64,000 nucleotides of DNA from Stegostoma tigrinum (taxonomy: Eukaryota), in assembly GCF_030684315.1 (NCBI RefSeq), contig NC_081364.1, forward strand, positions 44,602,152 to 44,666,151. Direction: 5' to 3'. The notes under the pieces were generated by a model. The model was not told the DNA's origin. It searched no databases and saw only the letters and a program-made list of their open reading frames with translations. The translations under genes and the position numbers were made by a program. The stretch's first letter is position 1, and every line of letters starts with the position of its first letter. Below, in pieces: positions 27,541 to 62,272 of the stretch.

Positions 27541-28639
27541 GAGAAAGAAAGATTAAAATAATCTGAAAAATGTATTTTCACGGCTGGTCTGGAAGCAAAA
27601 TCTGTGTTTGGATTTTGTTTTCAGTTAAAATGTTTTAAGAATCAAAATAATTCTTTATGGTATTTCAGTTTCAAACCTATTACCAGCATTTAGTACTATA
27701 ACATTATTGCCACCTGTTTAGCACTTCAAGGTGTGCCTTTGAAAGGTCTATCACCTGATTGAGATAAGGTTTTACGCAAAAAAGTCTCAAGTGCGCCAAA
27801 TATTTTGTCAATCTTTCTATCCAAATACTTGAATAATACTGTGCTCAGCTATGACAAAATATAGCTCTCTTTAAATCTAATGAGTATAAAGCTGTCTTTT
27901 TCACAGTGGTACTATCTACATGAATGTGTGCTATTTATGTTTGAAAGTACATTCCAATTACTTGTGCTATTGTCCTGGTTAGTTCAATTCCAATCTATTG
28001 AGTACATTTTGATTAACTTGCCGTTCAAATGACATTAAGCAGTAACACCATTGAAAGCAAAATCACTTGTATTCTTGATTCAGCATCCTATTCTCAATTC
28101 TTCATATTGCAAAAATCAGTTTTTGTTATTGAATCTGATCTTTTGTATGATTGAAGCCAGCCTATTTTTGTGTCAAAATTCTTTCCATTTCATTCAATTG
28201 ACCTGTAATACCTGATATACTTTAGTCTGTCACATCAATTTAACTTGAGTTTTCAAAATGATGAGCAATTTTCACTCAATGAGATTTAGAAAGATTCAAT
28301 GAAAACAGTCAAAGGTGTTATATGAGCAAGGTTAGGAGGAAATTTTTGTTGAATCATTTTCTGTAGGCCTAGGGCTTGGGGGTTAAAGTGAGAAGATGAA
28401 GGGTTAAATAAAAGAGTTGGCTGGGAAATTGATCAGGCTCAAAGTTGATGGGATTGAAAGGGAGTGAAAGGCAGAAAGGAACATGGAAGCTTTGGAGGGA
28501 ATTTCTGAGGTTGACAGGCTGAGGCTGCAAGTCCCTCTTTGAAGGGCTAACCGTGACATCTTCCAACATCAAAATCACAGTGAGCAATGGAAATGGAAAC
28601 TGGTGACCCCTACAACTGAAGTGGAGAGAGTAAATTTTT

Positions 28640-29940
28640 GTATCAGTGATAATAGGAACTGCAGATGCTGGAGAATCCAAGACAATCAAGTGTGAAGCTG
28701 GATGAACACAGCAGGCCAAACAGCATCTCAGGAGCACAAAAGCTGACGTTTCGGGCCTAGACCCTTCATCAGAGAGGGGGATGGGGAGAGGGAACTGGAA
28801 TAAATAGGGAGAGGGGGGAGGCGGACCGAAGATGGAGAGAAAAGAAGATAGGTGGAGAGGAGAGTATAGGTGGTGAGGTAGAGAGGTGATAGGTTAGTCC
28901 AGGGAAGTTGGACAGGTCAAGGAGGTGGGATGAGGTTGGTAGGTAGGTAGGAAATGGAGGTGCGGCTTGGGGTGGGAGGAAGGGATGGGTGAGAGGAAGA
29001 ACAGGTTAGGGAGGCAGAGACAGGCTGGACTGGTTTTGGGATACAGTAGGGGGAGGGGACGAGCTGGGCTGGTTTTGGGATGTGGTGGGGGAAGGGGAGA
29101 TTTTGAAGCTGGTGAAGTCCACATTGATACCATTGGGCTGCAGGTTTCCCAAGCAGAATGAGTTGCTGTTCCTGCAACCTTCGGGTGGCATCATTGTGGC
29201 ACTGCAGGAGGCCCATGATGGACATGTCATCTAAAGAATGGGAAGGGGAGTTGAAATGGTTTACGACTGGGAGGCGCAGTTGTTTACTGCGAACCGAGCG
29301 GAGGTGTTCCGCAAAGCGGTCCCCAAGTCTCCGCTTGGTTTTCCCAATGTAGAGGAAGCCACACCGGGTACAATGGATACAGTATACCACATTGGCAGAT
29401 GTGCAGGTGAACCTCTGCTTAATATGGAAAGTCATCTTGCGGCTTGGGATAGGGGTGAGGGAGGAGGTGTGGGGGCAAGGTAGCATTTCCTGCGGTTGCA
29501 GGGGAAGGTGCCGGGTGTGGTGGGTTTGGAGGGCAGTGTGGAGCGAACCAGGGAGTCACGGAGTGAGTAGTCTCTCCGGAAAGCAGACAAGGGTGGGGAT
29601 GGCCTGTCTCTGCCTCCCTAACCTGTTCTTCCTCTCACCCATCCTTTCCTCCCACCTCAAGCCGCACCTCCATCACCTACCTACTAACCTCATCCCACCT
29701 CCTTGACCTGTCCGTCTTCCCTGGACTGACCTATCCCCTCCCTACCACCCCACCCATACTCTCCTCTCCACCTATCTTCTTTTCTCTCCATCTTCGGTCC
29801 GCCTCCCCCTCTCTCCCTATTTATTCCAGAACCCTCACCCCATCCCCCTCTGAAGGGTCTAGGCCTGAAACGTCAGCTTTTGTGCTCCTGAGATGCTGCT
29901 TGGCCTGCTGTGTTCATCTAGCTTCACACTTTATTATCTT
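28640..29940. mobile_element. Penelope-like (Neptune-type) fold-back insertion: minus arm about 28640-29601 encoding GIY-YIG, plus arm 29602-29940
   Basis: FTCTSANVVYCIHCTRCGFLYIGKTKRRLGDRFAEH...NHF...RRLQEQQLI; inverted copy of the 3' end; TSD agagtaaattttt (28627-28639 / 29941-29953). Confidence 0.92.
28745..28772 (-). ncRNA. Minimal type I hammerhead ribozyme-like motif in Penelope pLTR
   Basis: Reverse complement is CTGATGA A GGGT CTAG GCCC GAAA CGTC: core boxes, 4-bp stem II, palindromic ACGT and a GUC site. Stem I is only about 2 bp. Confidence 0.6.
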
Positions 29941-30292
29941 AGAGTAAATTTTTATTTTGTCGCTAACAGAGCAGGCTTTATTTGTGAGCAATGTAAGGCC
30001 CTTCAAGGGGGATTGCATGAAGCAGACGCTAACACAAGAGAGGTTAAAGACAGCCATAATCACAAACGTGAGGTTGCCATGTTTGTTCAGGTATGGAGGT
30101 TTGTTGCCATACTGTATAGACAGAGCATATACTTAACCCTTGCATGCTTTGCTATGGACAACTAGAGGATGCAGTGTGTGTATGTGACGGGCAATTAGGA
30201 TCTGTGAGGGACACAGCCTTGTGCATTGTAGGAAAATGAAGATGTTCATCAGCAGGAACACCACCTTCAGCTACAGCATCTAAATGCTGAAT

Positions 30293-30367
30293 CAGTTGGT
30301 GCAGGCTTGGAGGGCCGAAGGGCCTATTCCTGTGCTGTAATTTTCTTTATTCTTTGTTCTTTGTTCT
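30293..30367 (+). mobile_element. CR1 extreme 3' tail
   Basis: ggcttggagggccgaagggcctattcctgtgctgtaa followed by (TTCTTTG)n. Confidence 0.75.
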
Positions 30368-32020
30368 TAGTTCAGTCACTCTCACCCATATCCCGTAAAG
30401 GAATAAATAAAAACTATTGTCAAACACAGCAATCAAGGAAGTGCTTGTTTGGCAACCACTTTAAATGGAACTGTGTTTCATGAAGCCACCTTTCACTGGA
30501 CTGTAATGTGTTGATACTGTAGGGGTCGATATCCCCTGTTTCATTGTAATTGCAAACGTAGCTTACTGGTTTGTTGTCTTTCCAAACTCCCCATTGTTTA
30601 ATAAAGGTTAAGGTTACAAACTGACAGAAGCGTTCATAATACCTCTTGGTCCTGTATTTAAATGTGACAACGTTTCATGCTACTGTGCAGCTGCATTGAT
30701 AGTTGATCACACATCTGATGATGAAAAATAAATGGTGGCGGTGAACCCAGAAGAACGTGTCAGCAGCAAATGCTTCCGCTATTTGTGAACATGACATCAG
30801 CACTCTGGAGAAGTGGTACGTAGATAATGAGGTAAGCAGCGAAAAATTGCATGAGGTAATTGGCTAGAGCTCACAAGAGAAACCCTCCATGAAACTCCCT
30901 CCCAAATTCACACTGCCAAATTTTGGCAAATCTGCCCAGACATAAACTTAACAGTGCAAGCTGTTCTTGTACTTTGTTGGTAACACAACAAACTGTACAT
31001 AGCCCAAAGAAATTATACATCGACATTGTCTGACACATTGCTAATTACTTTGGGAATTTAGGCAACTTTCGGTATTTAGTGGAAACTACATTCTGTAATA
31101 ACTCTGCTTCAGAAATGTATTTTGCACTCAAAATCTATCTACTTTTTGCAACACTGAAAGAACATTTTCTGATGTGTAATAAAACACATGTTGAATTCCT
31201 TGAAAGAAAGTCAGTGGAAATAATATTTATCTTGTTAGGTGGCAAAGGCAATCATCACATCTTCTGTGGTAAGATATTTTCTCTTGAATTTTAATTTGCC
31301 TTTAAACTCAAATTTCTTTATCAGTTGTTCTTGTAAAATCAAATAAATGCCATAATCCTCTATCAAAGCTATCTTCTTTAATCCTTTTCCTATGTGGAAA
31401 CAGAGACGTTAGTAGAACAAACATTGGAAAGCCATTAAGTTGATCTTGAAGTACTTGAATAAATTTCTCATCCTGTCATTGCTATCTATGGAATTTCTAT
31501 TTGGGAGATAAATGTTTTGTCAGGCCCAGAAGACATGAGAAGGGTAATAATATGTATATATATTAAAGCTCTTGTCTCTTGTTTAGTTTTTTTTAAGAAT
31601 GGATGCTTGTTGAGTTTAAGATGGCTACTAACCACAGAAACATCCAGTGGACAACAGTTAACTAATCATCCTCCTGGAATGTTAAATCCTATGCATTATA
31701 CAGGGATTCTAGCCAAACCCACCCAAAGAATCCTCAGGTCTTGCATCTCACCAGCCAGTTTTGGCTTGAAAGAAAGCCACTGAAACTCATTATGGTTGAG
31801 ATTACTTTAATGGCCTCCACAGTTATCTCCTACAACGTGCAACGGCCTTCACCAAATATTCAAAGCTATCTCATGAGCTAATGCTACTGAAGCATGAAAC
31901 CTAATCATAGTTGTTTGTTAGCTTTAAGTATACAGCTCTTTCCATTGTCTGTTTCCAAGACCAAAAGCAACTCTAGGCTTAATTTAAAGTCTGCTTCTAC
32001 TCACAACTGTCTCAAAACCC

Positions 32021-32215
32021 AGCAGGCCAAGCAGCATCTTAGGAGCACAAAAGCTGATATTTCGGGCCTAGACCCTTCATCACCTTTTCTGATGAAGGGC
32101 CTAGGCCTGAAACGTCAGCTTTTGTGCTCCTAAGATTCTGCTTGGCCTGCTGTGTTCATCCAGATCCACACTTCGTTATCTCAGATTCTCCAGCATCTGC
32201 AGTTCCCGTTGTTAC
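32021..32215. mobile_element. Miniature Penelope fold-back element centred on two opposed hammerhead-like cores
   Basis: ...gacccttcatca-cctttt-ctgatgaagggcctaggcctgaaacgtc...; about 60-bp inverted arms; TSD tctcaaaaccc (32010-32020 / 32216-32226). Confidence 0.9.
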
Positions 32216-32291
32216 TCTCAAAACCCTAATTTTCAGGAAGAATCTGCAAAGTGAAAATTCACTGTCTGCAGGAATTGTAGATATTTTCTAA

Positions 32292-32398
32292 GCAACCTGT
32301 TCAGATGTGTTTTTTCACACCTCCAGACCAGGTAGGACTTGGACCTTGGACTCCTAACCCAGAGGTAAGGGTACTACCACTGTGCCACAAGAGACCTC
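32292..32398 (-). mobile_element. tRNA-derived SINE head (second family)
   Basis: Reverse complement ggtctcttgtggcacagtggtagt...ggtccaagtcctacc, with A-box- and B-box-like motifs at pol III spacing. Confidence 0.6.
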
Positions 32399-33207
32399 AA
32401 ATGTAACTATTTTTTAAGTTCTGAGAAATAAACGGAATTCTGCCAGTTCACTGCAAAAACCCTTTAGGCATCGACTTTACTGGATTCTAATTCATGTAAT
32501 TTAATGCTATTATTTTGATTTTTATGTAGCTCATAATTGTAACTTCCTTGTGTTCCTTATTTTTCTTCATTGTATGCTTGTGACATGATGGATATCCCTG
32601 CTATCCCCCCACCACTCCCAATGAGTTTTTAAATGCATTACTTACTTTGCCTTAATACAAAATAATTTGCTTTTCAATTGAAATTCACAAAAGGATTTGG
32701 GGAAACACATCACTGCCCTTACTTCAGAAGAAAAGACAAATAAAAATTAGAAGGAAATTTAAAATCACTCCGGGTACAGACAGAAGAGGAAGACCATAAA
32801 ATAATTCAATTCCCCTATGTGACAGTTCCTACAAAGTTATGATTCAGTAATGACTGACTCATGATTTGGAAATCGTAGATAGAAATTTCTATATATCAGC
32901 TAAACAGTATTTGCAATAAAAACTATAACTACATGACATTAAATGGTCTGCACTACAGAACAGGATGAGAACATCTGGCATCTGGGCAAATGGCAACATT
33001 GCTGATTTGCACAGATTTCCCAATGAATGGGCTAATTTCCAGTCCCTACTAAAAGTGAAGCTGGTCTAAAGCAGTTAATTTTACAATTTTTTGAAACCTG
33101 CTTCATTTTAGGATTCTCCTGTTCCCTTTGTACTCCTTCAGACAAATATGTGTACAGTTTGCAGTACAGACTTCCCCAGGGCTGGAGTCAATCACTCTAA
33201 CAGTGAG

Positions 33208-33505
33208 CATGGAATCATAGGATCCCTGCAGTATGGACACAGGCTATTCAGCCCAGCAGGTTCACACTGACCCTCTAAAGAGCATCCCACTTAGACCTAC
33301 CCCATCACTGCATTTCCTATGGCTGACCCACCTAGACTGCACATCATTGGGTGCTATAGGCAATTTAGCACATCCAGTCTACCTACACTACACATCTTTA
33401 GACAGAAACTAGAGCTCCCACAGGAAACTAATACAGGCACCCAAGGGTGGGATTGAACCCAGGGCCCCAGGACTGTGAAGTAGCAGTGCTCACCACTAAG
33501 TCGTA
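33208..33505 (-). mobile_element. V-SINE (HE1-like), decayed
   Basis: Reverse complement ttagtggtgagcactgctacttcacag...gggttcaatccc; tail cctatgattccatg. Confidence 0.8.
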
Positions 33506-34639: not shown

Positions 34640-35112
34640 CGCAAAAATGATTTACAGGGATGTTGTCTGGACTGGAGGTTTTGAGTTGAAAGGAGAGGCT
34701 GTTTACCTGAGGCTTTATTCCCTGGAACACAGGAGACTGAGGGGTGACCTCACAGGGATTAATAAAATCATGAGGGGCAGAAATAAAATGAATAGGCAAG
34801 GTCTTTTCCACAGGATAGGGAGGTCCAAAACTAGAACGGCAAAGGTTTAAAGTGAGGGGGAAAGATTTAAAAGGGGCCTGAGGGGCAATGTTTTCAAACA
34901 GAGGGTGGTTAGTATATAGAACAAGTTATCAGAGGAAATGGAAGAGGCAGTTACAACAGTTAAAAGATATTTGGACAGATGCATAGATAGGATAGGTTTA
35001 GAGAGATATGGGCTAAACACAGGTAAATGAAATCTGGTTTAGTTGAGAAAACGTGCTTGGCATGGCCAAGTTGGATCAAATGGCCTGTTTCCATCCTGTA
35101 TGATTCTATTAC
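34640..35112 (+). mobile_element. CR1 LINE 3' fragment
   Basis: LRLYSLEHRRLRGDL..INKIMRG; 3' UTR ggcctgtttccatcctgtatgattctat. Confidence 0.8.
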
Positions 35113-35680
35113 TCACTATTTCACTCAGGAAATGGCAGAACAGATGAAGTGGTGGGTGAAGCACTGACAGCTCTTTTTGTGCAAAGCATTGGGTGAACAG
35201 TTTTTAACAATTCATTTCAGCGGTGTTTCATGAATGTTCGAGCAATGCAATTCTACAAGTTTATCAAAGCCGCGCATTGACAGGACAATTCTTCTATATG
35301 ATAATATCCATTGATTTCCATGAGCTCAGGAGTTAGACTGTAAAGTAGCTTTGCTGTTTTGCCACCTAGCAGTGGCAAGGGCAATAAACACAGCTGCGAA
35401 GAAAAGGCAAGATGTATGTTTCACATACAATGTGCTGAGTCCAGTAATTTGCTAGGAATATTTGGCTCTAAGCAGTATGAGCTGTAACATCGTTTGACAT
35501 TGTAGTTGGTAGAGAGGATTGCAGATAAAGGAGGAAAAATTGCTCCTGCTCAGGAAACGGTGAAATGTTGCAAAACCGTACGGGGAATAACAGAGATATG
35601 AAATGTAGACTAACTTTTGCATCACTGATAACCCTGCTAAGTTTCTAAAATGCAGAGTAACTAGGTCCTCAGAACAGTAG

Positions 35681-37649
35681 ATAACAAAGTGTGGAGCTGG
35701 ATGAACACGGCAGGCTAAACAGCATCTCAGGAGCACAAAAGCTGACGTTTCGGGCCTAGACCCTTCATCAGAGAGGGGGTTGGGGAGAGGGAACTTGAAT
35801 AAATAGGGAGAGAGGGGGAGGTGGACTGAAGATACACAGAGGAGAAGATAGGTGGAGAGGAGAGTATGGGTGGGGAGGTAGGGAGGGGATAGGTCAGTCC
35901 AGGGAAGATGGACAGGTCAAGGAGGTGGGATGAGGTTAGTAGGTAGGAAATGGAGGTGATGCTTGAGGGGGGAGGAAGGGATGGGTGAGAGGAAGAACAG
36001 GTGAGGGAAGCGGAGACAGGCTGGGTTGGTTTTGGGATGCAGTGGGGGGAGGGGACGAACTGGGCTGGTTTTGGGATGCAGTGGGGGAAGGGGAGATTTT
36101 GAAGCTTGTGAAGCCCACATTGATACTATTGAGCTGCAGGGTTCCCAAGCGGAATATGAGTTGCTGTTCTTGCAACCTTCGCGTGGCATCATTGTGGCAC
36201 TGCAGGATGCCCATGATGGACATGTCGTCAACGGAATGGGAGGGGGAGTTAAAATGGTTCGCAACTGGGAGGTGCAGTTGTTTGTTGCGAACGTGTTCTG
36301 CAAAGTGGTCCCCAAGCTTCCGCTTGGCGTCCCCAATGTAGAGAAAGCCACACCGGGTACAATGGATACAATATACCACATTGGCAGATGTGCAGGTGAA
36401 CATCTGCTTGATATGGAAGGTCATCTTGGGGCCTGGGATAGGGGTGAGGGAGAAGGTGTGGGGGCAAGTGTAGCACTTCCTGCGGTTGCAGGGGAAGGTG
36501 CCGGGTGTGGTGGGGTTGGAGGGGAGTTTGGAGCGGACAAGGGAGTCGCGGAGAGAATGGTCTCTTCGGAAGGCAGAGAAGGGTGGGGATGCAAAAATAG
36601 CTTGGGTGGTGGGGTTGGATTGAAGATGGTGGAAGTGTTGGAGGATGATACGTTGTATACGGACGTTGGTGGGGGCGGGGTGTGAGGGATGTGTTGCGGG
36701 AGACGCGGTCAAGGGCGTTCTTGACCATTGCGGGGGGAAAGTTGCGGTCCTTGAAGAATGTGGACATCTGGAATGTGCGGGAGTGGAATGTTTCATCCTG
36801 GGAACAGGTGCGGCGGAAGCGGAGGAATTGGGAATAGGGGATGGAACTTTTGCAGGAGGGTGGGTGGAAAGAGGTGTATTCTAGGTAGCTGTGGGAGTCA
36901 GTGGGCTTAAAATGGACATCAGTTTCTAGCTGGTTACCTGAGATGGAGACTGAGAGGTCCCCAAAGCTGAGAGACTTTGCAGAACACCTCCGCTCAGTTT
37001 GCGATAAACGACTGCACCTCCCAGTCGCGAACCATTTTAACTCGTCCTCCCATTCCTCAGACGACATGTCCATCATGGGCCTCCTGCAGTGGCACAATGA
37101 TGCCACCCATAGGTTGCAGGAACAGCAACTCATATTCCGCTTGGGAACCCTGCAGTCCAATGGTATCAATGTGGACTTCACAAGCTTCAAAATCTCCCCT
37201 TCCCCCACTGCATCACAAAACCAGCCCAGCTCAACCCCTCCCCCCACTGCATCCCAAAACCAACCCAGCCTGTCTCCGCTTCCCTAACCTGTTCTTCCTC
37301 TCACCCATCCCTTCCTCCCACCTCAAGCTGCACCTTCATTTCCTACCTACCACCTCATCCCACCTCCTTGACCTGTCCGTCTTCCCTGGACTGACCTATC
37401 CCCTCCCTACCTCCCCACCTATACTCTACTCTACTCTCCACCTATCTTCTTTTCTCTCCATCTTTGGTCTGCATTCCCCCTCTTTCCCTATTTATTCCAG
37501 TTCTCCCTCCCCATCCCCCTCTCTGATGAAGTTTCTAGGCCCGAAACATCAGCTTTTGTGCTCCCGACATGCTGTTTGGCCTGCTGTGTTCATCCAGCTC
37601 CACACTTTGTTATCTTGGATTCTCCAGCATCTGCAGCTCCTATTATCAC
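35681..37649. mobile_element. Penelope-like fold-back insertion: minus arm 35681 to about 36960 (RT C-terminus, Cys linker, GIY-YIG), plus arm about 36971-37649
   Basis: DLSVSISGNQLETDVHFKPTDSHSYLEYTSFHPPSCKSSIPYSQFLRFRRTCS; GTFPCNRRKCYTCPH; NVVYCIHCTRCGFLYIG; TSD tcctcagaacagtag (35666-35680) / tcctcaaaacagtag (37650-37664). Confidence 0.93.
35744..35771 (-). ncRNA. Hammerhead-like motif, intact copy
   Basis: Reverse complement CTGATGAAGGGTCTAGGCCCGAAACGTC. Confidence 0.6.
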
Positions 37650-37915
37650 TCCTCAAAACAGTAGTTGACCTTGACTGGTTCAGTCTTCTCTTTCCACTGG
37701 TACCAGATAATTCTAATAAAGTAAGAATTCTAATTAGCTAATGCTACATAGAAACATTGAAGGAGAGAAGATGTCTTCCTTTTCCTTAGACATTTCATGA
37801 AGGCTTTCAAGGCATTATCTGATCATTGGAGTACTTTGGTTATCCACATTCTGGGCGGAGCTTCAATTGTGCACCCTGCACCCTGCAAATAAAAACTCTA
37901 TCTCTCATTTAAGAG

Positions 37916-38119
37916 ACAACATAGCGCAGAGCTGGAGGAACACGGCAGGCCAGGCAGTGTCAGAGGAGCAGAAAAGTTGATGTTTCGCGTCAAGACTCTT
38001 CTTCAGAAAAAGGAGCGTCTTGACCCTGCTCCTCTGACGTTGCCTAGCTTGCTGTGTTTGTTCAGCTCCACACTGTACAGTTTCTGACTCCAGCATCTGC
38101 AGTTCTTGCTATTTCTCCT
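37916..38119. mobile_element. Older miniature Penelope fold-back element
   Basis: Inverted arms (gagctggaggaacacggcaggccaggcagtgtcagagg / cctctgacgttgcctagcttgctgtgtttgttcagctc), tail ccagcatctgcagttc, direct repeat tttaagag (37908-37915 / 38120-38127). Confidence 0.8.
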
Positions 38120-40470
38120 TTTAAGAGTTGCAAGTTCGGCAAGCCAGCATTAAGCAGCGGCAAGTGAATTGGATATCTGCCAATCCTTCCATCCCTTCAA
38201 AATATAATGTGAATCGCACCAAAAGCCTTCCTAAGGTACCGAAGTGAGGCCCAATCACAAAAATTGATCAGGCTTCCTGAACGAGTAGAACAGAAATCAG
38301 AACCAATGTCTACTCATAGCCAACATGCCATAAATGAAAATTAGCACTGCCCCTTCTCACCATTGAGCAAGAACACAAAAGTATGGGGAACTGACTAGCT
38401 GAAAATTGTACCAAGTTCAATCTATTGTTTACAGTACTATATATCTTCCTGGTCACAAGGTGCAGGCTTCTTCTGAAGATATTAACCTGATTTTTTTTCT
38501 ATGTTGAACTAGTCATGAACTGGTTTTCATATTCCAGAAACCTTACGATCCTCTTTTAGATATTTCTTCTGAACAAGATTTTGCATTTGTTTGTGAAAAT
38601 AGCATTCAGTGCCGAATAGCTAACTCACTCTGTATCTTACTCTCAATTGGTACCATGGAAATTGAGAACGAAGGGCAGAGATAGGCTCTGACAGCTTTAA
38701 TTTTAAAATCAATATCTCGCTAGACAAGACAATCGAGAAGATAAAGATGAAGATAAGCTGACAAAAGAAAAGCGCTACGACATTTTCAGATAATTTATTT
38801 TAAAAATAGTGCCATATTTTTGAGTTCAATAACTTTGCCTCTGTGAAACCAGCAAAGCCAATGTCACAAACAGAAGGCTTCATACTTACATTTTCCTGTT
38901 TGGAGAAACTGATCTATTCCAAGCAAAGATATGAAAATAATAAGCCCCATCAGGCAGACCAAACTGTTAAACTATATAGCATATAGCAAATAAACGAGAA
39001 TGTATTGTTGTTCCATGAGAAATGATTACATCAATCAGCTACACAAAACTGCTGCTTGGCAAACACAAAAAATAGAAACCTCACACTATAAGATTTTCTT
39101 TCTTTCATTTAGTGGTACTATGAGGCGTTCCTTTGTAACACTAGCTTTCAGTGGTTTTGTTGCTACATAATGAAACACTGGGCATGTTCAAGAAAAATCA
39201 CCAGGTGAAAAGAGAAGCAGGAATCAAAAGCATGTTGATAATCAGCGTTATTGTCTAAGATGGGAAAGAATAAAGCATGCTTTTATAAAACACTATTCAC
39301 TACCTCAGCACGTCCAAAAACCCTCTGCATTCTTTTGAGAGTGTGACCACCGTTGTTTTGTTGGCACTGATAAGAACATTCATTATCAGAGTTTCCAATA
39401 ATGAAAAGAACCATCAGGGTAATCAAAGATTGACTATATTTTTGCATTAAGAGAACAATCCAATTGATTGACTGGAAAAATCATAATGACTACTAACAAC
39501 GTAAGTGATTGGTTATTGCTCAGATTTGCTGAGAAGGGGCAACATTAACTGCTTCCAGGGTTTTCAATTCAAGACAGAGGTGCTCAGAAATCAAAAGGCA
39601 GTAAGCATAGAAATTAGTGGGGATGTGTTTCAATAGGGAAACATATGTCTTTCTCATGGCTATTTGTTTCTTCCTTTCAAGTTTTCAGATCTTTATGGTT
39701 AAAGTATAATTTACTATCTACAAATATGAGGCACAATTAACATGTTCTGGAGCATAAGCCTGCACCAGTTTGCAAATCTGGTCCATAAGCTGTTCTTTGA
39801 GGTTTGGCTGAAACAAAAAGAAGCAGAATTTATCAGTATGAACATAGAAATATAAATTGTTTCCAATACTACCATTCAATCCTACTTTACAGAGGAAATT
39901 AATGAGGCTAATCTTCTGTGTAAGAAAGACGCACTATCACAGGCATTCTCAACCTTATTATTTCTGAAGTCCAACATCATGTTACAAAACTTTCATGGGT
40001 CCCCATAACACAATTAAAGTCTGTTTCTGTTTAAAAATTAATATGGAATAAAGCATATGTATTACTTGTGTTTAAATTATTGTGGAATTTGTTGTTTGCT
40101 GAACGATTCTGTTTTTGGAGGTACCTTCCATATGCATGCCATGCTCAATGTTTAATGTAGCTCAATGCTTTGTTTTTATTGATGACCTTGTTGAAGCTTC
40201 AGCTTTGCATAACAGACCAACCTTTCCAGTGCTGCAGAAGAATCAGTGCTGTATTCATTGGAAAATTCACACCAAAATATCCCCTGTGACATTTCTCCGA
40301 ACTTAGTACTGAGAAAACTATCTAATAAAAATATCAACGAGCTCATTTGAAAGGTCTTATCACATGGAAGGTGGCAATTTAACTTCAAAATTTCCACTAA
40401 AGGGGTTTGTAGCCCACCACACTGTATATAGTAGATTGTTCCATTGAGAGTTCAGTGTAGTAAATATTAC

Positions 40471-41222: not shown

Positions 41223-41274
41223 TATGACTAGAGCCTATTAAATGGTTCATTTTTTTAACATTGTTCTCCTCAAG

Positions 41275-41965
41275 GTGTAAAGTGATTTAGGGAGATCTAG
41301 TCAATAGAAGCCCTTGTGTAGTATAAAATGTGCAGGGGAGAACTTAAGAAAGCAATTAGAAGAACAAAGAGAAAACATGGAGCAACATGGTAAACAAGAA
41401 TAGGGAATCAATTCTGGTCACTGCACTTAAAAAGGATGTGATTGTACTGGAAGAGGTGCAGAGGAGACTCACCAGAATGTTGTATGAGGTGGAATACTCT
41501 AGCTATAGACAGTAGCCAAATAAAATTGTTTGTTTTATTTGGAGCAGAGAATGTTAAGGGGAAAATTGGTAGAAGTGTAGATGATTCTGGGGACCTTGAA
41601 CAGGGTGTACATGAACCAGTTAAAGGGTCAATAACAGAGGGGACACACTTTCTGGAGTTGAGGAAAATGATCTTTTTCGCAAGAGGGTGTTAGGGCTCTA
41701 GAATACACTGCCTGGGAGGGTATTTGAGGTGGGTGGCCTCAAAACCTTAAAAAGTACTTGGATGAGCACTTGAAGTGTCATAACATTCAAGGCTATGGGC
41801 CAGGTGCTTCAGAAGGGTCCTGACCCAAAACATTAACTTTCCTACCCCTCTGATGTTGCTTGGCCTGCTGTGTTCCTCTAGCTCCACACTGTGTTATTTC
41901 TAATGTGAATCTAGCATGGTTTTGGTGGGCTGAAAGGCCCATTCTGTACTGTATGTTCCTGTTAT
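41275..41965 (+). mobile_element. Decayed CR1 fragments with a nested Penelope pLTR piece (41808-41900)
   Basis: caattctggtcactgcac...ctggaagaggtgcagaggaga (QFWS...LEEVQRR); insert ttcagaagggtcctgacccaaaac...cttggcctgctgtgttcctctagctccacact; tail gggctgaaaggcccattctgtactgtatg. Confidence 0.7.
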
Positions 41966-45215: not shown

Positions 45216-45546
45216 ATCCTTGCCTGCCCCCTCCCAACAACCCCACGCCCCCTCCCCAAATCTCTCAACTTCCTTTGGTGGTGTAATAATCAAATATTGT
45301 CCAAAACCACGTACAAGGAAATCAGAAGCCAAATTTTAGAAACTGAGAAATGAGAGCTGCAAGTGGACTGGACATCACAACTTGAAGGAAAATCAGTGTC
45401 CAATTAGTGAGAGGTATTCAAAAGAAAGATGCTATGGGCACATTGTAGATAAGCCCCCACAAAGAAAAAGGGTGATTATGTAAAATATAGATCCTTCCAG
45501 TTATCCAGAATCATGGAGAGCAAGATAAAACAGTGAAAGGAAGCTA

Positions 45547-46151
45547 AGATAACAAAATGTGAGGCTGGATGAACACAGCAGGCCAAGCAGCATCTCAGGA
45601 GCACAAAAGCTGACGTTTCGGGCCTAGACCCTTCATCAGAGAGGGGGATGGGGAAAGGGTTCTGAAATAAATATTCCACTTGGAACCTTGCACCCAATGG
45701 CATCAATGTGGACTTCACAAGCTTCAAAATCTTCCCCTCCCCCACTGCATCACAAAAACCAGCCCAGCTTGTCCCCGCCTTCCTAACCTGTTCTTCCCCT
45801 CACCTATCCCCTCCTCCCACCTCAAGCCGCACCTCCATTTCCCACCTACTAACCTCATCCCGCCTCCTTAACCTGTCCGTCCTCCCCATACTGAACTACC
45901 CCCTCCCTACCTCCCCACCTATACTCTCCTCTCCACCTATCTTTTCCTCTATCTATCTTCGGTCCACCTCCCCCTCTCTCCCTATTTATTCCAGTTCCCT
46001 CTCCCCATCCCCCTCTCTGATGAAGGGTCTAGGCCCGAAACGTCAGCTTTTGTGCTCCTGAGATGCTGCTTGGCCTGCTGTGTTCATCCAGCTCCACACT
46101 TTGTTATCTCAGATTCTCCAGCATCTGCAGTTCCCATTATTTCTGATCACA
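45547..46151. mobile_element. Penelope-like fold-back insertion (short minus arm to about 45673, tailed plus arm)
   Basis: About 125-bp inverted arms; intact hammerhead-like motifs on both strands (45612-45639 minus, 46017-46044 plus); TSD aaaggaagcta (45536-45546 / 46152-46162). Confidence 0.92.
46017..46044 (+). ncRNA. Hammerhead-like motif, intact copy
   Basis: CTGATGA A GGGT CTAG GCCC GAAA CGTC read directly on the plus strand. Confidence 0.6.
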
Positions 46152-46339
46152 AAAGGAAGCTATGATATTCGCAAAAAAAACTGTAGAAAATCTAGAGACG
46201 TATCGGAAGTACAGGGTAAAGAAAGGAAATTAGGAAAGCAAGGAAAGGTTCTGAAAAAATATTATCAGCTATAATCAAAGAAAACCAAAATATTGAGCTA
46301 AAGAGGAGGAGTGTGAAATATTAGGAAGAATAAGCAAAA

Positions 46340-47282
46340 GGCAAGTGTACGCACTGAAGGAGCTGACAATCTTGAAGGTGGCTAAATCAGATTGATTGTG
46401 CCCCAGGCTGAGAGAGGAAGCCACGGAGAAAGTAACAGATGCTTGGAGAATAATTTTCCAATCCTCGGTCTAGACAATGGTGAGCTAGTAGAGGAGTAGA
46501 GGTTTGAAACCATTGCACCATTGTTTAAAATGGTAGGAATAGGCCAAATAATTTTAGGGCAGACATCCTGACTTAAACAAATTATCAGAATCAATTCTGA
46601 GAGACATAGTAAACTCACATTTAGAAAAGCAGAGATTTTTCAGAGATAGTCTACATGTTTTTATTAAAGCAAGGTCATGTCTTGCTAAATTCATCTGTTT
46701 GTTTTGATGATGTAACAAAGAGGATTGATGAACACAGTGGAGTTGATGTTCTCTGCGTGGATTTTGGTTAGGCATCTGACTATGTACACAAGACAAACTT
46801 GTTACAAAAGTAGAAGCCCGTGGGATACAGACAGGGCAATGTGATGAGTTGAATTCAGAATTGGCTCAGCCACAGAAAACAAAGCGTAATGATTGATGCG
46901 AGTTTTTGAGAATAGAAAGCAGTTTCCAGTGGTGCTCCACGCAGCTCAGCATTGGGTCCCTTGCTGTTTGATGTATATATATGTAATTTGGACTGAAATG
47001 TGAGAGACATGAATGAGAAATTTGCACAAGAACTGACTGTGATTAGACAGCAAAGGGGATGGCTATCAATACCAAATGATATCAATAGTCTAGTTGAGTG
47101 ATGGAAAAGTGACAAATGTAATTCAGTCTGGAGCAGTGTGATATAAAGCATTCAGAGAGAGGAAACAAGCCCAGATAATATTTAATAAATGGGAGGATTT
47201 TGAGAGGGGTTGAGTAAATGAGAGACCTTGAAGTGCATATCCTCAGGTCCTTGAGTGTGGCAAAACAGGTAGATAGGATGCG
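46340..47282 (+). mobile_element. Decayed CR1 RT region
   Basis: caccattgtttaaaa, aaggtcatgtcttgctaaat (RSCL.N), agtggtgctccacgcagctcagcattgggtccc (SG.P..S.LGP), aaatttgcacaaga. Confidence 0.7.
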
Positions 47283-47780
47283 AGAGATAATGGGAACTGC
47301 AGATGCTGGTGAATCCGAGATAACAAAGTGTGAAGCTGGATGAACACAGCAGGCCAAGCAGCATCTCAGGAGCACAAAAGCTGACGTTTCGGGCCTAGAC
47401 CCTTCATCAGAGAGGGGGAGGGGGAGGGGGCTCTGAAATAAATAGGGAGAGGGGGGGAGGTGGATCGAAGATGGGTCGAGGAGAAGATAGGTGGAGAGGC
47501 GACAGACAAGTTAAAGGGGCGGGGTTGGCGTGTGTGGAGGTGAGTGTAGGTGGGGTGGTAGAGAGGGGATAGGTCAGTCCGGGGAGGATGGACAGGTCAA
47601 GTGGGCGGGATGAGGTTAGTAGGTAGGAGTGGAGATGCGGCTTGAGGCGGGAGGAGGGGATAGGTGAGAGGAAGAGCAGGCTAGGGAGGCTGGGAAGAGC
47701 TGGACTGGTTTTGGGATGCAATGGGGAGAGAGGGGATTTTGAAGCTTGTGAAATCCACATTGATACCATTGGGCTGCAGG
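47283..47780 (-). mobile_element. Penelope-like 3' fragment (single tailed arm)
   Basis: Tail gataatgggaactgcagatgc, intact hammerhead-like motif at 47383-47410, and the end of the GIY-YIG ORF (LQPNGINVDFTSFKI). Confidence 0.9.
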
Positions 47781-48229
47781 CTTGCTGTCTACTTCTTGTT
47801 CTTAACAAATCCTTTATGTGTGCAAAAATGTTAACCCATGTACCCCCGTGTACTGTTTTCTCACTTGGTGACTTTGATGTGGCAACTTATCAATTGCATT
47901 TTGGAAAAATTGCAGCCCACCATTTCTACATATTTCTGTCTATCCACTTTGCTTGTTATTACCTCAGAAATAAGTACTCAAATTGGTAGTTAAACAATTT
48001 TTCTTTCACATTGCCATTTTTGTTTTAGTATTTGTTCATCTATTTAGATAAATTCAGGTCAGATTTAAGATATTTATTCAAACAGTAATTGTTCACACTG
48101 TATACATGGGGATCTCACAAAAAGAAATCTGTACTCTGGAGTTAGTTTGGTTACAACTCTCCAGCAGAAGACAATATCACATGACTACTGAAGTCACAGG
48201 TACATCACAGAATAACAGCAAATTGCATC

Positions 48230-49545
48230 CGAGAGATTTTGTTTAAACACATATGTAGAAAACCCGACAAAGGAGGGGGCAGTCCTGGACTTAACATTTG
48301 GAAATAAGCTCTGGCAGTTGGAAGACATACAAGCATTTTGGAGATGGGGACAATAACTCAAGTTGGATTTAGGGTAGTTATTGGAAAAAGATAAGGAAAG
48401 GCTAATTTCAATAAATATATAATTTGGACCAAGTTGACTGAAAGCCAATCCTTGCTGCATTCAAGGAGGAAGTAGAGAAATTGTAAGACACATATGTTCC
48501 TGTAAAGACAATGGGTCGGACCAAGGTCAAAGAACCCTGGATATGCAAGAAACTAAGGTTGAGATTAGGAAATAAAAGACAACCTTAGGACAGACATTGA
48601 GGGCTCAATGTGGCGGTATCCCTAAAGGATAAACAGTGCCAGAGGGATCTCATCAATTAAATTAGAAAAATAAAGAGAGTGCATGAAAATCTTGAGTGGA
48701 TAGAATAATGGAAATCCCAAAGATCTTCTTTAAATATATAAAGAGCAAGTGAATAACTTGTGAAGGAGTAAGGCCTAATAGGGACCATAGGGTTATTCTG
48801 AGTGTGGACCAGAAGACATTGGAACAATTGTGACTGGAAAAGAGTAATTCAGGTGTAAACATCAGGGTGAAGGACCATAAAATATTACAAGAAATCAAGA
48901 AAGAGAGAGTCAGAGAGAGAGTGTAGGTGCTGGCAGGTTTGGAAGTCTTAAAATTGGAGATATCTGCACGCCTCCATGAGATTTTTCCCAAGCTATTGAG
49001 GAAGGCAAGGATGAAGATATAAAGGGCCATGGTAGTAATTTTCAAATCCTCTCTCACTTTCGGTGAGGTGCCAGAGAACTAGAGGATAGCTAACGTGATC
49101 GCATTGTTTTCAAAAAATTAATTAATAGATCAGGAAATGATAGACTAATCAGTCTAACCTCAGTGGTGGGGAATGCAATTAGAAAGAATTCTAAGGTACA
49201 GAATAAAACTGCATTTGGAGAGATATGGATTAATCTGGGTTAATCAGTACAGATTTATTAAGGGAAGATCATGTTGAACAAAATTGATTTTTTTTGTGCT
49301 GGTGATGAGGAGTTTTAATGAAGGCAAATGCACTTGATGCTGCCTGCATAGACTTTAACAAGGTTTTTGGTAAAGTTCTTCAAGGCACTAGTAAAGATTC
49401 CATGGGATCTAAGGCAAAACAGCATGTTGGATCAAAAATTAGCCAAAAGGCAGAAAGCAGAAAGGTCTTAGCAGAGCCATATTTCTGTGAAAAGAAGACT
49501 GTTTCCAGTAGGGTTCCACAGGGCTCATTGCTGGGATCCTTTACT
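48230..49545 (+). mobile_element. Decayed CR1 ORF2 region
   Basis: PTKEGAVLDL, aggatagctaacgtg (RIANV), agtctaacctcagtggtggg (SLTSVVG), [19 protein letters not shown]. Confidence 0.75.
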
Positions 49546-56750: not shown

Positions 56751-58273
56751 CACATGAGTTCATGACATAATTTTAATGATAATGTCTGCTTTACAACTCA
56801 TGATTAAATTTTTATTGCTTTAACTGTTTAAATCTATTTCCCTCTAAGAATTTAAATATTGTTTGAACAAGGGTGGTTCTTGAAGCCAGGAAATATATTC
56901 CAAACAACCTTAGTGAATCAAAAAAAAATTGTAACCGATTATTTTTCACCCAAAAATCATTCAATTTGTATGCACTAATTTGCATAACTTATTACACCAA
57001 GCATTCTCATAGATGTAAAGTGATCAAATATTGGCCATTTGTTTAAAAAAGCCAATAACCTACAATAAATTAGTGATTTATGGAATATCCTATTGATAAT
57101 ATTTCTTTACACAAGTAGCTTAGGGAAGATTTACACTTGCTTTAACAATCTGGGATTTTGTTTGACTCTTTTGCTGGAGCAGCTTTTACTGTAAATCAAC
57201 AATTTCTAACGATTCACTTGAACAATAATGATTCCGGATACATATAGGTCCAAAATCTAAACTGCCATTCACTGCCACTCATCAAGAAAACTGCTGATAA
57301 CTTTCACCTTAATACAGTGGAATGTGCAGAAATTGAAAGATTTTCAGACAACATTGTAGCTGTCAGCAGAGCGCTTAGCCTCTTTATGGGAATTTGTTCA
57401 GAGTCTATAGTATTCACGATTAAATATCTAAGTAATTCATTATAGGAAAGTGGTACACTATTGATCAGAAATTAAATAAGTGTTTTGGAAAAAAAGCACC
57501 AGAGGTTAGTTTAAAAAGAAATCTTGGATTCGATGGTAGACCGAGACGGTGGGAGACTTGGAAACCTAGCTGATAGATCTGGCCTGTTTTAAATGGGACT
57601 CATGGGAACTGAGATGAGCTGTTAGGACAATATAAGCGGGGACTCTAAGACTGACAATGGCATATTTGTAAGATTTTTATTAGATTGATACTAAATGAAG
57701 TTTTGAAGTTCCTTGGAATTGGGACAATGAACCAGTCTTAAAATGTTTGGACTGGCAGACCTGGCACACGCTAAGGGTGAGAATGAGTGTTGAAGAAAAT
57801 TAAGAGCACAGTTGGACACAGAGGAGATTTTGAAATTGATCAGAAGCATGGGAAATGAGAATCATTGCTGAAAAGACTGAGTGAAGATGTCACAGACATA
57901 ATTACACACTAGAATTAGACATTGCTAAAGCAATTTATACGTAAACCTATTTACAAATAATGTACAAGGAGAATGAAAATAATGTGTTTGGATCCTACAA
58001 CTTCGCCACAAATACCTCAGCTGAAAATGTGATATGTTATTGTTATTCTCCAAAATAGGAATAAATCACAAACGGAGTGTTCACCCTTTTGAGAAATTTC
58101 CTGATTTCTATTTCAATTAAATCAATGGAATGTATATGAAGTGTGCTGTATAAAGGGTGAGATTTTCCACCCACCCTCACCTAAAACAGCTAACTATCCA
58201 GGCACCAGGTAAAAATGAATATGTAGCTGGCTGGACTGCCTCACTAAAACTGTCCAAAGTATTTCTAAAGGTA

Positions 58274-58525
58274 GACAATGTGGTGGATCAGTTTTTAAGC
58301 ACGGCTGCCTTACAGCACAAGGGTCCTGGTTTCAATTCCAGCCTTGCTTCACTGTCTGTGTGGGTTTCCTTTGGGTGTTCTGGTTTCCACCTACAGTCCA
58401 AAGAGGTGTAGGTTTGGTGGATTGGCCATGGGAAATGCAGGGTTCCAGGGATAGGGAGTGGGGTGTGGTGAGTCAGTGTAGACTTATTTGGCTGAATGCC
58501 TAGTTTCCACTCTGCAGGGATTTTA
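58274..58525 (+). mobile_element. V-SINE (HE1-like), internally deleted
   Basis: ggtggatcagt...ggtttcaattcc...gtgtgggtttcctttgggtgttctggtttccacctacagtccaaaga...ggattggccatg. Confidence 0.8.
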
Positions 58526-59662
58526 AATTTAAAAAATCTGATGCAAAATTGTCTGAAGACTCATTTGTCAATGAAAATTATTTGGTAATTGGTTAAAAGG
58601 GCTAATTTTTAAATAATTATATTGTTATTGTTATTTTAATTCTAATCCCCAAAATAGAGAATGTAGATCTGGATTTTTTTAACAGGGTATAGAGCAAAAT
58701 TTGCACCACCCAAAATTAAAATGCCCTGCTCTAATTTTCATGGCTAGCCATCGTAGAGTTACTTGAGCAAATATAGAACATGGGAATAATTTTGATTGGT
58801 GCTGTCTCATTGAGTGGAGGAAATGAAGAAATAATGGAGTACGGATTTGTTTTGATTGGTTGTGCCCAAGGCACAATGTCATGTCAGCCATCTTTTCTAC
58901 CTGCGTAAAATTCAATCTCATCCACTTCAGTGGGACTGGATCAGGTTGGGTCAATGCAATGTCACACAATTTGCGCTGTCACCGAAGGTAACCCCTCCCA
59001 CATCTTGATTTTTCAAAATTTTAAAGGGTAACAGTTATCTCAAGTGGAATGGCAACATCTACTATTTGTGTTCAAAAAAGTGATGCAGAATGGCTGCTGA
59101 CTATCAAGGAGAGCTAAAGGTGCCTACGTGGGACAGCAGTGGGAATGCTTCTTCAGGAAGTAAGACAATAGTTTATCCTGAGGGGAGCATTACATCCCAT
59201 TTGCAAGAATTCATCAACCCCTGCTCAAACAACCAGTGAAAAAGATATCCTGAATTTACCTAGATAGACAATATGGAAAAAATCACCATCGCGATTGTAT
59301 TGATTTCTTATTCATCTTGATCAAGGAAGCTAGGCTTACGAAGTGCCAGACTTAAAAACACCTTCATTCTCTGAGACATTGGCACAGTTCTGGAAATGAG
59401 TGCAAAGTCTTCTTTCCCACCCCTCCCCTCCCTCCAAAGAAAAAGACCCTGTCAGCCAGTATTAATGAAGTACAGAACTCAAAATTTCAAACAGAACAAT
59501 GCAAAGTCTTTGAGAAGCTAATGAGTTCATCAAAGTAAATAACAATTGACACCCAATTTAAAATAACATAATCCAATTAACAGCTCATGCATCTGTTAAA
59601 ATAACTAAGTTCATATGCTGTCTGAGATGCCACCAAATCCTGATGAGCAGGATCCTTTAAAT

Positions 59663-59893
59663 GAGAAACAAAAGCAGACATTTCTGGAAAATCTCAGCAG
59701 GTCTAGCAGCATCTGTGAAGAGAAATCAGTGATAACTTTGCAAGCCTAGTGGCTGAATTCTGAGGAAGGATCACTGGACCTGATGCAGTAAGTCTGATTT
59801 CTCTTCATGGATACTGCAAGACCTGTTGCTCTTTTCCAACAACTTCTGTTTTTGCTTCTCATTTACAGCATCCACAGTTATTTTGGTTTTTAT
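59663..59893. mobile_element. Old Penelope pLTR fold-back element
   Basis: gagaaacaaaagcaga...cagcaggtct / agacctgttg...tctgtttttgcttctc inverted arms, central ctgaggaagg, tail cagcatccacagtt. Confidence 0.7.
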
Positions 59894-60250
59894 TCCATTA
59901 GAGTAGGGACCATTTGAGCATTCACAAAAAGGTTCTACTGAATTCTACAGCATAAATAACCAATGCCGAACGGAATCTATTTGTGATTTTTCAACACAGC
60001 GAAAACATTCATGATGAAATTCCATTGAACATCTGCATCAACAAAATGTCCTAAGCTGAATACAGCTGAAGTCAGTCAGAAGCTCAGTCATCTATCAAAG
60101 CTTTGAAAAAGAGGATATATGGTGAAGAATAACTCAGAAAATTTGAAAGCGAAAGGACAATGCAGACTATAAGTCTGAACTTCTGTACTGGGCAATGAAG
60201 AATGGTACTTTATCCAGTGAACAACATAAACTAAAGCATATGAAGACTTT

Positions 60251-61737
60251 GAGATAACAAGGTATAGAGCTGGATGAACACTGCAGGCCAAGCAGCATCA
60301 GAGGAGCAGGAAGTCTGATGTTTCGGGCCTAGACCCTCTTCAGAAAATCTTGGGATGATGGGAACTGCAGATGCTGGAGATTCCAAGATAATAAAATGTG
60401 AGGCTGGACGAACACAGCAGGCCAAGCAGCATCTCAGGAGCACAAAAGCTGACGTTTCGGGCCTAGACCCTTCATCAGAGAGGGGGATGGGGGGAGGGAA
60501 CTGGAATAAATAGGGAGAGAGGGGGAGGCGGACCGAAGATGGAGAGTAAAGAAGATAGGTGGGGAGGTAGGGAGGGGATAGGTCAGTCCAGGGAAGACGG
60601 ACAGGTCAAGGAGGTGGGATGAGGTTAGTAGGTAGCGGGGGGTGCGGCTTGGGGTGGGAGGAAGGGATGGGTGAGAGGAAGAACCGGTTAGGGAGGCAGA
60701 GACAGGTTGGACTGGTTTTGGGATGCAATGGGTGGGGGGGAAGAGCTGGGCTGGTTGTGTGGTGCAGTGGGGGGAGGGGACGAACTGGGCTGGTTGAGGG
60801 ATGCAGTCGGGGAAGGGGAGATTTTGAAGCTGGTGAAGTCCACATTGATACCATATGGCTGCAGGGTTCCCAGGCGGAATGAGTTGCTGTTCCTGCAACC
60901 TTCGGGTGGCATCATTGTGGCAGTGCAGGAGGCCCATGATGGACATGTCATCAAGAGAATGGGAGGGGGAGTGGAAATGGTTTGCGACTGGGAGGTGCAG
61001 TTGTTTTTTGCGAACTGAGCGGAGGCGTTCTGCAAAGCGGTCCCCAAGCCTCCGCTTGGTTTCCCCAATGTAGAGGAAGCCATACCGGGTACAGTGGATG
61101 CAGTATACCACATTGGCAGATGTGCAGGTGAACCTCTGCTTGATGTGGAATGTCATCTTGGGGCCTGGGATGGGGGTGAGGGAGGAGGTGTGGGGACAAG
61201 TGTAGCATTTCCTGCGGTTGCAGGGGAAGGTGCCGGGTGTGGTGGGGTTGGAGGGCAGTGTGGAGCGAACAAGGGAGTCACGGAGAGAGTGGTCTCTCCG
61301 GAAAGCAGACAGGGGAGGGGATGGAAAAATGTCTTGGGTGGTGGGGTCGGATTGTAAATGGCGGAAGTGTCGGAGGATAATGCGTTGTATCCGGAGGTTG
61401 GTAGGGTGGTGTGTGAGAACGAGGGGGATCCTCTTGGGGCGGTTGTGGCGGGGGCGGGGTGTGAGGGATGTGTCGCGGGAAATGCGGGAGACGCGGTCAA
61501 GGGCGTTCTCGATCACCGTGGGGGGAAAGTTGCGGTCCTTAAAGAACTTGGACATCTGGGATGTGCGGGAGTGGAATGTCTTGTCGTGGGAGCCGGAAAA
61601 TCTTGGCCTTTTTCTGAAGAAGGGTCTCAGCCTGAAACATCAGCCTTCCTGCTCCTCTGATGCTGCTTCGCCTGCAGTGTTCATCCAGCTCTAAGCCTTG
61701 TTATTTCAGATTCTCCAACATCTGCAGTTCCTACTAT
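60251..61737. mobile_element. Older miniature Penelope fold-back element (arms 60251 to about 60345 and 61607-61737), split by a younger insertion
   Basis: Arms are reverse-complementary; outer TSD catatgaagacttt (60237-60250 / 61738-61751). Confidence 0.9.
60354..61595 (-). mobile_element. Young 5'-truncated Penelope-like (Neptune-type) element: RT C-terminus, Cys linker, GIY-YIG, pLTR
   Basis: ORF 60434-61555: FFKDRNFP...IPLVLTHHP...GTFPCNRRKCYTCPH...NVVYCIHC...YIGETKRRL...RRLQEQQLI; hammerhead-like motif at 60451-60478; TSD gaaaatcttgg (60343-60353 / 61596-61606). Confidence 0.93.
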
Positions 61738-62272
61738 CATATGAAGACTTTCCTCTTTTATGCCATGGTAAATTGTAGCAACACTCAGAGAGCTGGTCAC
61801 TGGTGAAGAATGCTGAAGACTTCAAGGCCCAGGCTAGTTTAATGTTTTAATAATCACTGAGCATTGGTCAGAGGACAAATGTCTCTGGGGATGCAGGTGG
61901 CACTATGGGTTCTGCCCCTCTTCCTTCACCAACTTCTTTGGCACTTGGCATCTTCCCGGCTGGGCTGATGTTGGGACGATGCCTTCCATCTAATTGTAGC
62001 ATTGCAAGGTGTTGAAGACAATGTAAACTGGCTACTAATTGAAGCTTTAAATATGAAATTCGCATCACCACCATCTTGGGGCTGGCTGACTCTCAACAAC
62101 CAGTTCCGCCATCAGTAAAATTCTATACAGATAGTGAGACAGCATTGGGAATACAATCCAACCAAGCACACGATGCTTTTTTCAGGAAGTTGGGATCCAA
62201 TCAGATCTCCCAGAGTGAACAAAATCAAGGAGTACGTTTAAGGAAAGGTGCTTAAGGAAGCAGCTAAGAAGA

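Follow-up and report, generated by a model that had tools for sequence, protein, structure and literature searches.

The stretch analysed here, referred to as the window, comprises 64,000 nucleotides of Stegostoma tigrinum (NCBI RefSeq assembly GCF_030684315.1, contig NC_081364.1, positions 44,602,152 to 44,666,151 of the forward strand). It contains 18 copies, here called arms, of the 3' end of one Neptune-like Penelope-like element (PLE), which belong to an old and a young subfamily. The arms were collected by self-comparison of the window, by an inverted-repeat search and with a profile derived from the arms themselves. Fourteen of them pair into seven head-to-head units and four are single. 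In all seven units both arm 3' ends face outwards and exactly one of the two arms carries a tail, an outcome with P = 0.008 if the ends chose independently at 50:50. Units and singles taken together, nine arms are tailless (short) and nine are tailed. Ends are numbered with the last T of the motif TTATCT as position 0. The arms and their duplications are located as follows (LINE, long interspersed nuclear element; RT, reverse transcriptase; pseudo-LTR, pseudo-long terminal repeat):

16603..19552, plus strand: CR1-type LINE (APE endonuclease and RT), host of unit U18, split in its RT region
18462..18473, plus strand: U18 target duplication, left copy, 12 bp
18471..18522, minus strand: U18 short arm, without tail, 51 nt identical to its partner
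18523..18628, plus strand: U18 tailed arm, starting within the hammerhead
18629..18640, plus strand: U18 target duplication, right copy
25071..25165, minus strand: single short arm, old subfamily, with an 11-bp duplication found by eye (25063-25073 and 25172-25182, one mismatch)
28627..28639, plus strand: U28 target duplication, left copy, 13 bp
28640..29601, minus strand: U28 tailed arm with zinc linker and GIY-YIG (Pfam PF01541 at about 29157-29390), tail to +40
29602..29940, plus strand: U28 short arm
29941..29953, plus strand: U28 target duplication, right copy
32010..32226: whole unit U32, 11-bp duplication copies at 32010-32020 and 32216-32226
32020-32082, minus strand: U32 tailless arm, stopping short of the fixed end
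32083-32216, plus strand: U32 tailed arm
35666..35680, plus strand: U35 target duplication, left copy, 15 bp, one mismatch
35679..36974, minus strand: U35 short arm, 1,296 nt, extending into the RT thumb
36975..37650, plus strand: U35 tailed arm
37650..37664, plus strand: U35 target duplication, right copy
37908..38127: unit U37, old subfamily, 8-bp duplication copies at 37908-37915 and 38120-38127
about 37913-38012, minus strand: U37 short arm
about 38010-38119, plus strand: U37 tailed arm
41807..41900, plus strand: single short arm, old subfamily
45536..45546, plus strand: U45 target duplication, left copy, 11 bp
45546..45673, minus strand: U45 short arm
45671..46151, plus strand: U45 tailed arm, tail to +42, overlapping the short arm by 3 nt at the centre
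46017..46044, plus strand: example of the hammerhead-like motif, in the U45 pseudo-LTR (CUGAUGA core, 4-bp helix II, GAAAC, GUC)
46152..46162, plus strand: U45 target duplication, right copy
47283..47783, minus strand: S47, single tailed arm and reference for the contig comparison (47283 is tail end +35, 47318 is short end 0)
60237..60250, plus strand: target duplication of the outer unit U60o, left copy, 14 bp
60251..60344, minus strand: U60o short arm, old subfamily
60354..61593, minus strand: younger single tailed arm, 1,240 nt, nested in the centre of U60o, with the end of the RT thumb, zinc linker and GIY-YIG
60341-60353 and 61594-61606: duplication copies of the nested arm
61607..61737, plus strand: U60o tailed arm, old subfamily
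61738..61751, plus strand: U60o target duplication, right copy

Judged by its coding remnants, the element is an endonuclease-bearing PLE, with a predicted GIY-YIG domain downstream of RT in one open reading frame. This agrees with the first reading of the letters without database searches, called the sequence-only reading below. Translated arms were similar to RT plus GIY-YIG protein (43% over 251 aa, E 2e-58; 35% over 198 aa), the arms are colinear with residues 407-712 of such a protein, and Pfam PF01541 (GIY-YIG) was detected above the cut-off in one arm. The open reading frame 28917-29555 contains VVYCIHCTRCGFLYIG followed by EHL and NHF. The zinc linker CNRRKCYTC (CX4CxxC) is present in three arms, and the translations of window arms have two cysteines inside GIY-YIG. 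The RT portion of the arms is the thumb only; the RT core is reached by no window arm, and no full-length copy of the element was found in the window. Fourteen longer protein relatives were found, of which three were scanned, all with RVT_1 and a weak GIY-YIG. The DKG motif and RVT_1 are found in the closest full-length relatives.

According to PMC8557442, a CX2-5CxxC linker between RT and endonuclease is common to Neptune, Nematis and Naiad. The translated linker and GIY-YIG cysteines match the Neptune/Nematis type as defined there, and on these features the element is called Neptune-like. By the same clade definition the Penelope/Poseidon clade is excluded for the window element, because the CX4CxxC linker is present. 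Two further classes were rejected. A miniature inverted-repeat transposable element (MITE) or another DNA transposon with terminal inverted repeats is ruled out by the asymmetric ends, by duplications of 8-15 bp and by arms with RT/GIY-YIG sequence. A non-LTR retrozyme, described as head-to-tail tandem hammerhead repeats in bioRxiv 10.64898/2026.07.22.740005, does not fit arms that are inverted pairs or singles.

Every unit is enclosed by one duplication, with lengths of 12 bp (U18), 13 bp (U28), 11 bp (U32), 15 bp with one mismatch (U35), 8 bp (U37), 11 bp (U45) and 14 bp (U60o). Thus, the 11-15 bp reported by the sequence-only reading for five named insertions and the 8 bp for that at 37916 were confirmed. 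With the same search windows, exact repeats of at least 8 bp were obtained for 0.7% of 1,500 random position pairs and repeats of at least 11 bp for none. The duplications of all seven units lie above this null. The arm nested at 60354 has a duplication of its own (11 bp exact, 13 bp with one mismatch). No duplication was found at the single arms 41807 and 47283. The AT content is 62% for the duplications and 58% for the window. U18 is inserted in one of two decayed CR1-type LINEs, at 4856-6888 (minus strand) and 16603-19552 (plus strand), which are about 70% alike. In the CR1 paralogue (4856-6725, minus strand) about 11 bases stand where an empty U18 site would have 12. Hence, the U18 target segment is present there once and not twice.

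Six insertions with two inverted 3' ends, one of them tailed, had been described. Five are as described. The sixth, at 60251, proved to be a nest, and U32 had been overlooked. At four fully diagnostic columns, the outer arms of the nest show the bases of the old subfamily. Of 93 sites, 14 differ between the two outer arms and 22-23 between outer and inner arm; the nested arm differs from the young U45 arm at 5 of 93. Since 60251 is a nest, the sole arm of about 1.3 kb in a true pair is the U35 short arm. Of its 1,296 nt about 0.85 kb are coding-homologous, so that a reach of up to 1.3 kb into the reading frame, as supposed before, is too long.

As had been proposed, a single integration event is the best reading of each two-armed unit: its arms share one enclosing duplication, they are of the same subfamily in seven of seven units (about 0.02 by chance pairing), and the U18 target is single-copy in the CR1 paralogue. 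Arms of different subfamilies within one unit were looked for and found in none of the seven. Alternatively, the pairs could be independent insertions, or products of later gene conversion or inverted duplication, that lie head to head by chance. The arms of U28, U35 and U45 are 5.5-8.8% apart, near some between-unit distances, and nesting does happen, as seen at 60251 and in at least 27 contigs with a joint that goes back from 47411 to 47318 in the comparison described below. However, the enclosing duplications largely refute this explanation, the arms abut at the unit centres, where by eye they overlap by about 0-3 nt or have up to 6 additional bases between them, and subfamily match and single tail both hold for all seven units. 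Independent insertion or later rearrangement is therefore regarded as highly improbable.

The two arms of a unit are nevertheless not the two halves of one folded strand. They are separate overlapping copies, and the term fold-back, under which the units had been described, is a misnomer. At least in U45 the two arms disagree at six shared-variant sites over a length of 127 nt. They carry different haplotypes, which a single copied strand cannot produce. In U28 and U35 the arms are mosaic in shared variants.

Eight of the nine short arms stop at -2 to +1, and the short end is fixed in six of the seven units. The fixed short-arm end that had been claimed was therefore found throughout, except at U32. 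Tail ends are ragged, from +31 to +42 with a mode of +35 (nine tailed arms). The tail loosely repeats the preceding 30 nt. Short end and tail end each follow directly on a TTATCT-type motif, in agreement with a single start rule operating at both. At the seven short ends with a duplication, target and template match over 3, 3, 0, 2, 3, 1 and 0 nt, i.e. over 1-3 nt at five of seven. Their sum of 12 exceeds the mean of the null, which is 2.5 (P = 0.0005) or, if two registers are allowed, 4.2 (P = 0.005). Pairing of the target 3' end with the template would produce such matches. No locus matched a 23-nt tail pattern in contigs of metagenomes, prokaryotes and viruses. Proteins that could reveal the sequence beyond the tail yielded one uninformative match, and none of three candidates passed.

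The sequence-only reading had assumed that one arm is primed at the true RNA 3' end, represented by the tail, and the other at an internal site. The ragged tail ends beside the sharp short end are what an RNA end and a defined site would give, and for the anole element PAc RNA-seq read ends were reported at both start sites (PMC11167929). In the same study, however, initiation was internal to the RNA 3' end and downstream sequence was needed for both sites. PMC3846280 describes the tail as sequence that runs on into the open reading frame of the next tandem copy, and none of the window tails is followed by poly(A) or a terminator. We consider priming at the RNA 3' end quite improbable. Two defined priming sites are in agreement with the in vitro starts of PMC11167929; the RNA 3' end as one of them is not, as both starts are internal there and some window tails pass the modal end. 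Probably both start sites are internal.

For a genome-wide view, contigs of public runs were matched to 46300-48800, a segment with one tailed arm (S47). In the run of the same species 203,707 contigs matched; some events remained uncounted, so that all counts are lower bounds. The listed 24 loose-end rows and 15 joint rows stand beside 2,812 and 499 further ones, respectively. A related species, about 6% diverged, was represented by two runs, which share 0.09-0.10 of words and gave about 27,700 matched contigs each. A bisulfite raw-read run, in which 0.9 of the matched reads run on unlike, served as side check only.

In the same species loose ends at the short end were found in at least 2243 contigs at 47317, 1676 at 47318 and 1046 at 47319 (at least 4,965 together). 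At the tail end, 47283, there were at least 1004, and at 47411, the 5' edge of the hammerhead, at least 818. In the related species the same short end was present in at least 612 and 712 contigs of the two runs. Within the rows listed, which give part of the distribution, the contig ends thus mark a sharp main short site at three adjacent positions, seen in both species. CpG decay probably accounts for part of the division between 47317 and 47318, as inferred from three variants in the arm alignment. The S47 arm itself is absent in the related species: flank matches end at 47280 and restart at 47788, with other letters beyond, and no clean empty site was found in the related species. Because the arm is absent and other sequence follows both flanks, the insertion probably deleted target DNA and did not duplicate it.

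Eight of the 15 joint rows listed are strand switches, and seven of these eight join positions 47282-47285, at the tail end, with 47317-47325, at the short end. These tail-to-short joints were found in at least 241 contigs with a summed depth of at least 10,070, without gap and with 33-49 letters on the shorter side. At a depth of 19.9 they correspond to at least about 500 single-copy equivalents. Among the rows listed for the related species, 1 and 0 contigs had such a joint, compared with about 34 expected if the number were proportional to the contigs matched. In the window, the run-on of the U45 tail agrees with the inverted short end at 8 of 10 letters and that of U28 at 5 of 10. In the contigs, the plurality letters past the modal tail end are the first letters of the inverted short end, although the agreement is only 0.39. 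No description of tail-to-short joints was found in a literature search, which did not reach the older primary papers. Tail-to-tail repeats appear as a prediction in PMC3846280, and Fig. 2 of PMC8557442 mentions that other variants are observed.

The joints hint at two readings, self-targeting, in which new insertions would be nicked and primed at an existing tail end, or a hairpin or circular intermediate. The latter would be a template or DNA intermediate of the form X - tail - inverted X, opened at the foot of the loop into one tailed and one tailless end. We hold this to be rather unlikely as the source of the units, and the same applies to its elaboration, in which the asymmetry is obligatory and unopened joints occasionally integrate, or the tail primes itself by folding back onto the short site. 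The strict one-tail asymmetry favours such an intermediate, as do the predominance of tail-to-short connections among the strand-switch joints listed, the letters past the modal tail end and the run-on of U45 and U28. In addition, PMC8557442 suggests that the tail arises by endonuclease resolution of an intermediate, and PMC3846280 expects tail-to-tail repeats from self-priming on a sense template. On the other hand, the remaining six of the eight tails tested are without run-on (1-4 of 10 matches), the short arms of U28 and U60o keep base +1, which is absent from the commonest joint, and the different haplotypes of the U45 arms do not fit one folded molecule. In PMC11167929 both start sites were obtained directly on RNA. 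The scarcity of joints in the lower-copy related species, by our inference, favours self-targeting, as nested insertion scaling with copy number squared fits it better. New arms are found repeatedly in older short units, at their centre or at the edge of the hammerhead (60341-61606; joint 47411-47318), which suggests that the element prefers its own sequence as target.

The account that we consider rather probable is that of staggered nicks, after which each target 3' end primes a cDNA at one of two likely internal sites flanking the tail of about 35 nt. First, the element endonuclease would nick both target strands 11-15 nt apart. Both freed target 3' ends would then prime reverse transcription, helped by pairing over 1-3 nt. 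One cDNA would start at the site after the tail, the other at the site before it. Both would stop at variable points, often near the hammerhead, and the truncated cDNAs would be end-joined head to head with 0-3 nt overlap. Finally, gap filling would yield the target duplication. An asymmetric dimer would give one start site to each end, and the two arms could derive from two different RNA molecules. A single arm would result where RT extended one of the two ends only.

The geometry, duplications, ends and statistics of this account are taken from the window; both-strand extension, internal starts and the dimer come from PMC11167929. There, both target strands were cleaved and extended in vitro with PAc, two internal RT starts bracketing the tail were initiated directly on RNA, and a protein dimer was predicted. 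Earlier work cited therein found the tail to be required for recognition by the endonuclease. Passages of PMC9977147, PMC8969392 and PMC12910113 contain nothing further on the mechanism.

Several points weigh against staggered nicks with two internal starts. Independent priming at two sites alone leaves the absence of two-tailed and of tailless units unexplained. The asymmetric dimer is an added assumption, and no start-site difference between the strands was seen in PMC11167929. The tail-to-short joints need self-targeting of the tail end in addition. Furthermore, the in vitro work concerns an element of the Poseidon clade and not the Neptune-like family of the window. Two units look as if copied from one template: the U18 arms have 0 differences in 51 nt, and the U32 arms have a common private change. 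The tailless arm of U32 also ends about 28 nt inside the fixed short end. Two old third-family fold-backs are without the clean pattern. Finally, the number of units is seven, and the pairing of arms is known from the window only.

Within the pseudo-LTR a minimal type I hammerhead-like motif is predicted from the arm alignment, with the features listed in PMC4209133. An Rfam scan of the window gave no match to a hammerhead model. Its five hits were all below the gathering score, and four of the five are microRNA models on fold-backs; such precursor hits lie at the short fold-backs 18498-18566, 32039-32135 and 37931-38066. If transcribed, these short fold-backs would form long hairpins. Helix I of the hammerhead has about 2 bp, the second pair being C-G in the young subfamily and U-A in two old-subfamily arms, possibly a compensatory change. 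Many short arms start at the same point, with CCTTTT-like pyrimidines just before the hammerhead core instead of the CT-rich sequence of the young family (e.g. 32083-32095, 38000-38012, 60338-60346 and 61607-61616). At least 818 contigs end at this point (47411). This shared start may reflect a non-autonomous derivative of about 130 nt or a hot spot for stops of reverse transcription.

The tail can be paired in an 8-bp stem with a part of the pseudo-LTR that lies about 45 nt upstream of the short end (46065-46127 and equivalents). The stem is conserved in sequence over 11 arms of three families. One both-sides change in the helix was found in the 11 arms, and the region folds no better than shuffled sequences (z 0.16). 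As there is little covariation and no better folding, the stem is not counted as evidence. Speculatively, this stem and the run-on pairing at the tail's foot would combine into a pseudoknot that surrounds the short start site.

An older third hammerhead-bearing family is represented by fold-backs at 366-560 and 59650-59895 and by a single match at 22728-22806. The right arms of these fold-backs have a recognisable tail, and the left arms do not end at the fixed site. At 59650 no duplication longer than 6 bp was found. Because they are very diverged and without duplications, these fold-backs are not included in the seven units. Short dispersed repeats of another family, 78-82% alike, lie at 12788-12943, 21509-21600 and 58353-58436. 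The open frames 20019-20336 and 26394-26720 (plus strand) look like host exons by eye. Pfam gave no match to either frame and Atlas none for 26394-26720, and no host gene was identified.

In L1 twin priming both target strands prime cDNA, which results in an inversion within one duplication, as in the window units. L1 twin priming, however, copies non-overlapping parts of one RNA, whereas the arms of the window units both contain the same 3' end and both face outwards. The units form hairpins resembling microRNA precursors, and they are also open to confusion with MITEs.

The layout of the units is not new, contrary to what the sequence-only reading had implied, and corresponds to the published signature of PLE insertions (PMC3846280, PMC8557442), with the same inverted 5'-truncated copy, one-sided tail of 30-40 bp and short duplication. 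In Pen2a_Av (Adineta vaga) the pseudo-LTRs are inverted and one of the two bears a 31-bp tail; duplications of 8-10 bp and an empty site are also described (PMC3846280). Fig. 2 of PMC8557442 gives the same insertion layout for all clades, the tail often being at one end only. Compared with Pen2a_Av, duplications in the window are mostly longer (11-15 bp), the arms are all short truncations and the copy number is very high.

A close mechanistic parallel is PAc of Anolis carolinensis (PMC11167929), with two bracketing starts, extension of both strands and a hammerhead in the pseudo-LTR. As a member of the Poseidon clade, PAc is without the CX4CxxC linker, which the window family has. PAc prefers AT-rich ATT sites, whereas the AT content of the window duplications is near that of the window. 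The non-homology of primer and template is stressed for PAc, in contrast to the matches at the short ends described here. Neptune and Nematis (PMC8557442) share with the window family the C-terminal GIY-YIG with two internal cysteines, the upstream CX2-5CxxC and a minimal hammerhead, but their microsatellite targeting was not seen at the window sites. The putative hammerhead resembles those of PMC4209133 in its core, the extra base before helix II, G10.1-C11.1 and a palindromic CG replacing helix III, and differs in its helix I of only about 2 bp. PMC4209133 had also recorded pairs of motifs on opposite strands, 100-700 bp from each other.

Since layout and two start sites have been published, the core finding is ordinary. 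For the origin of the one-sided tail, PMC8557442 proposes endonuclease resolution and PMC11167929 two RT starts. The joint loci (about 500) could discriminate self-targeting from a hairpin or circular intermediate. If the hairpin were true, it would explain the single tail per unit, and a 20-year-old question of PLE integration would become testable from one assembly. To the known PLE systems the window family adds a strict one-tail pairing, a short end that is sharp to the base in two species, target matches of 1-3 nt, arms from different templates and a recurrent tail-to-short joint.

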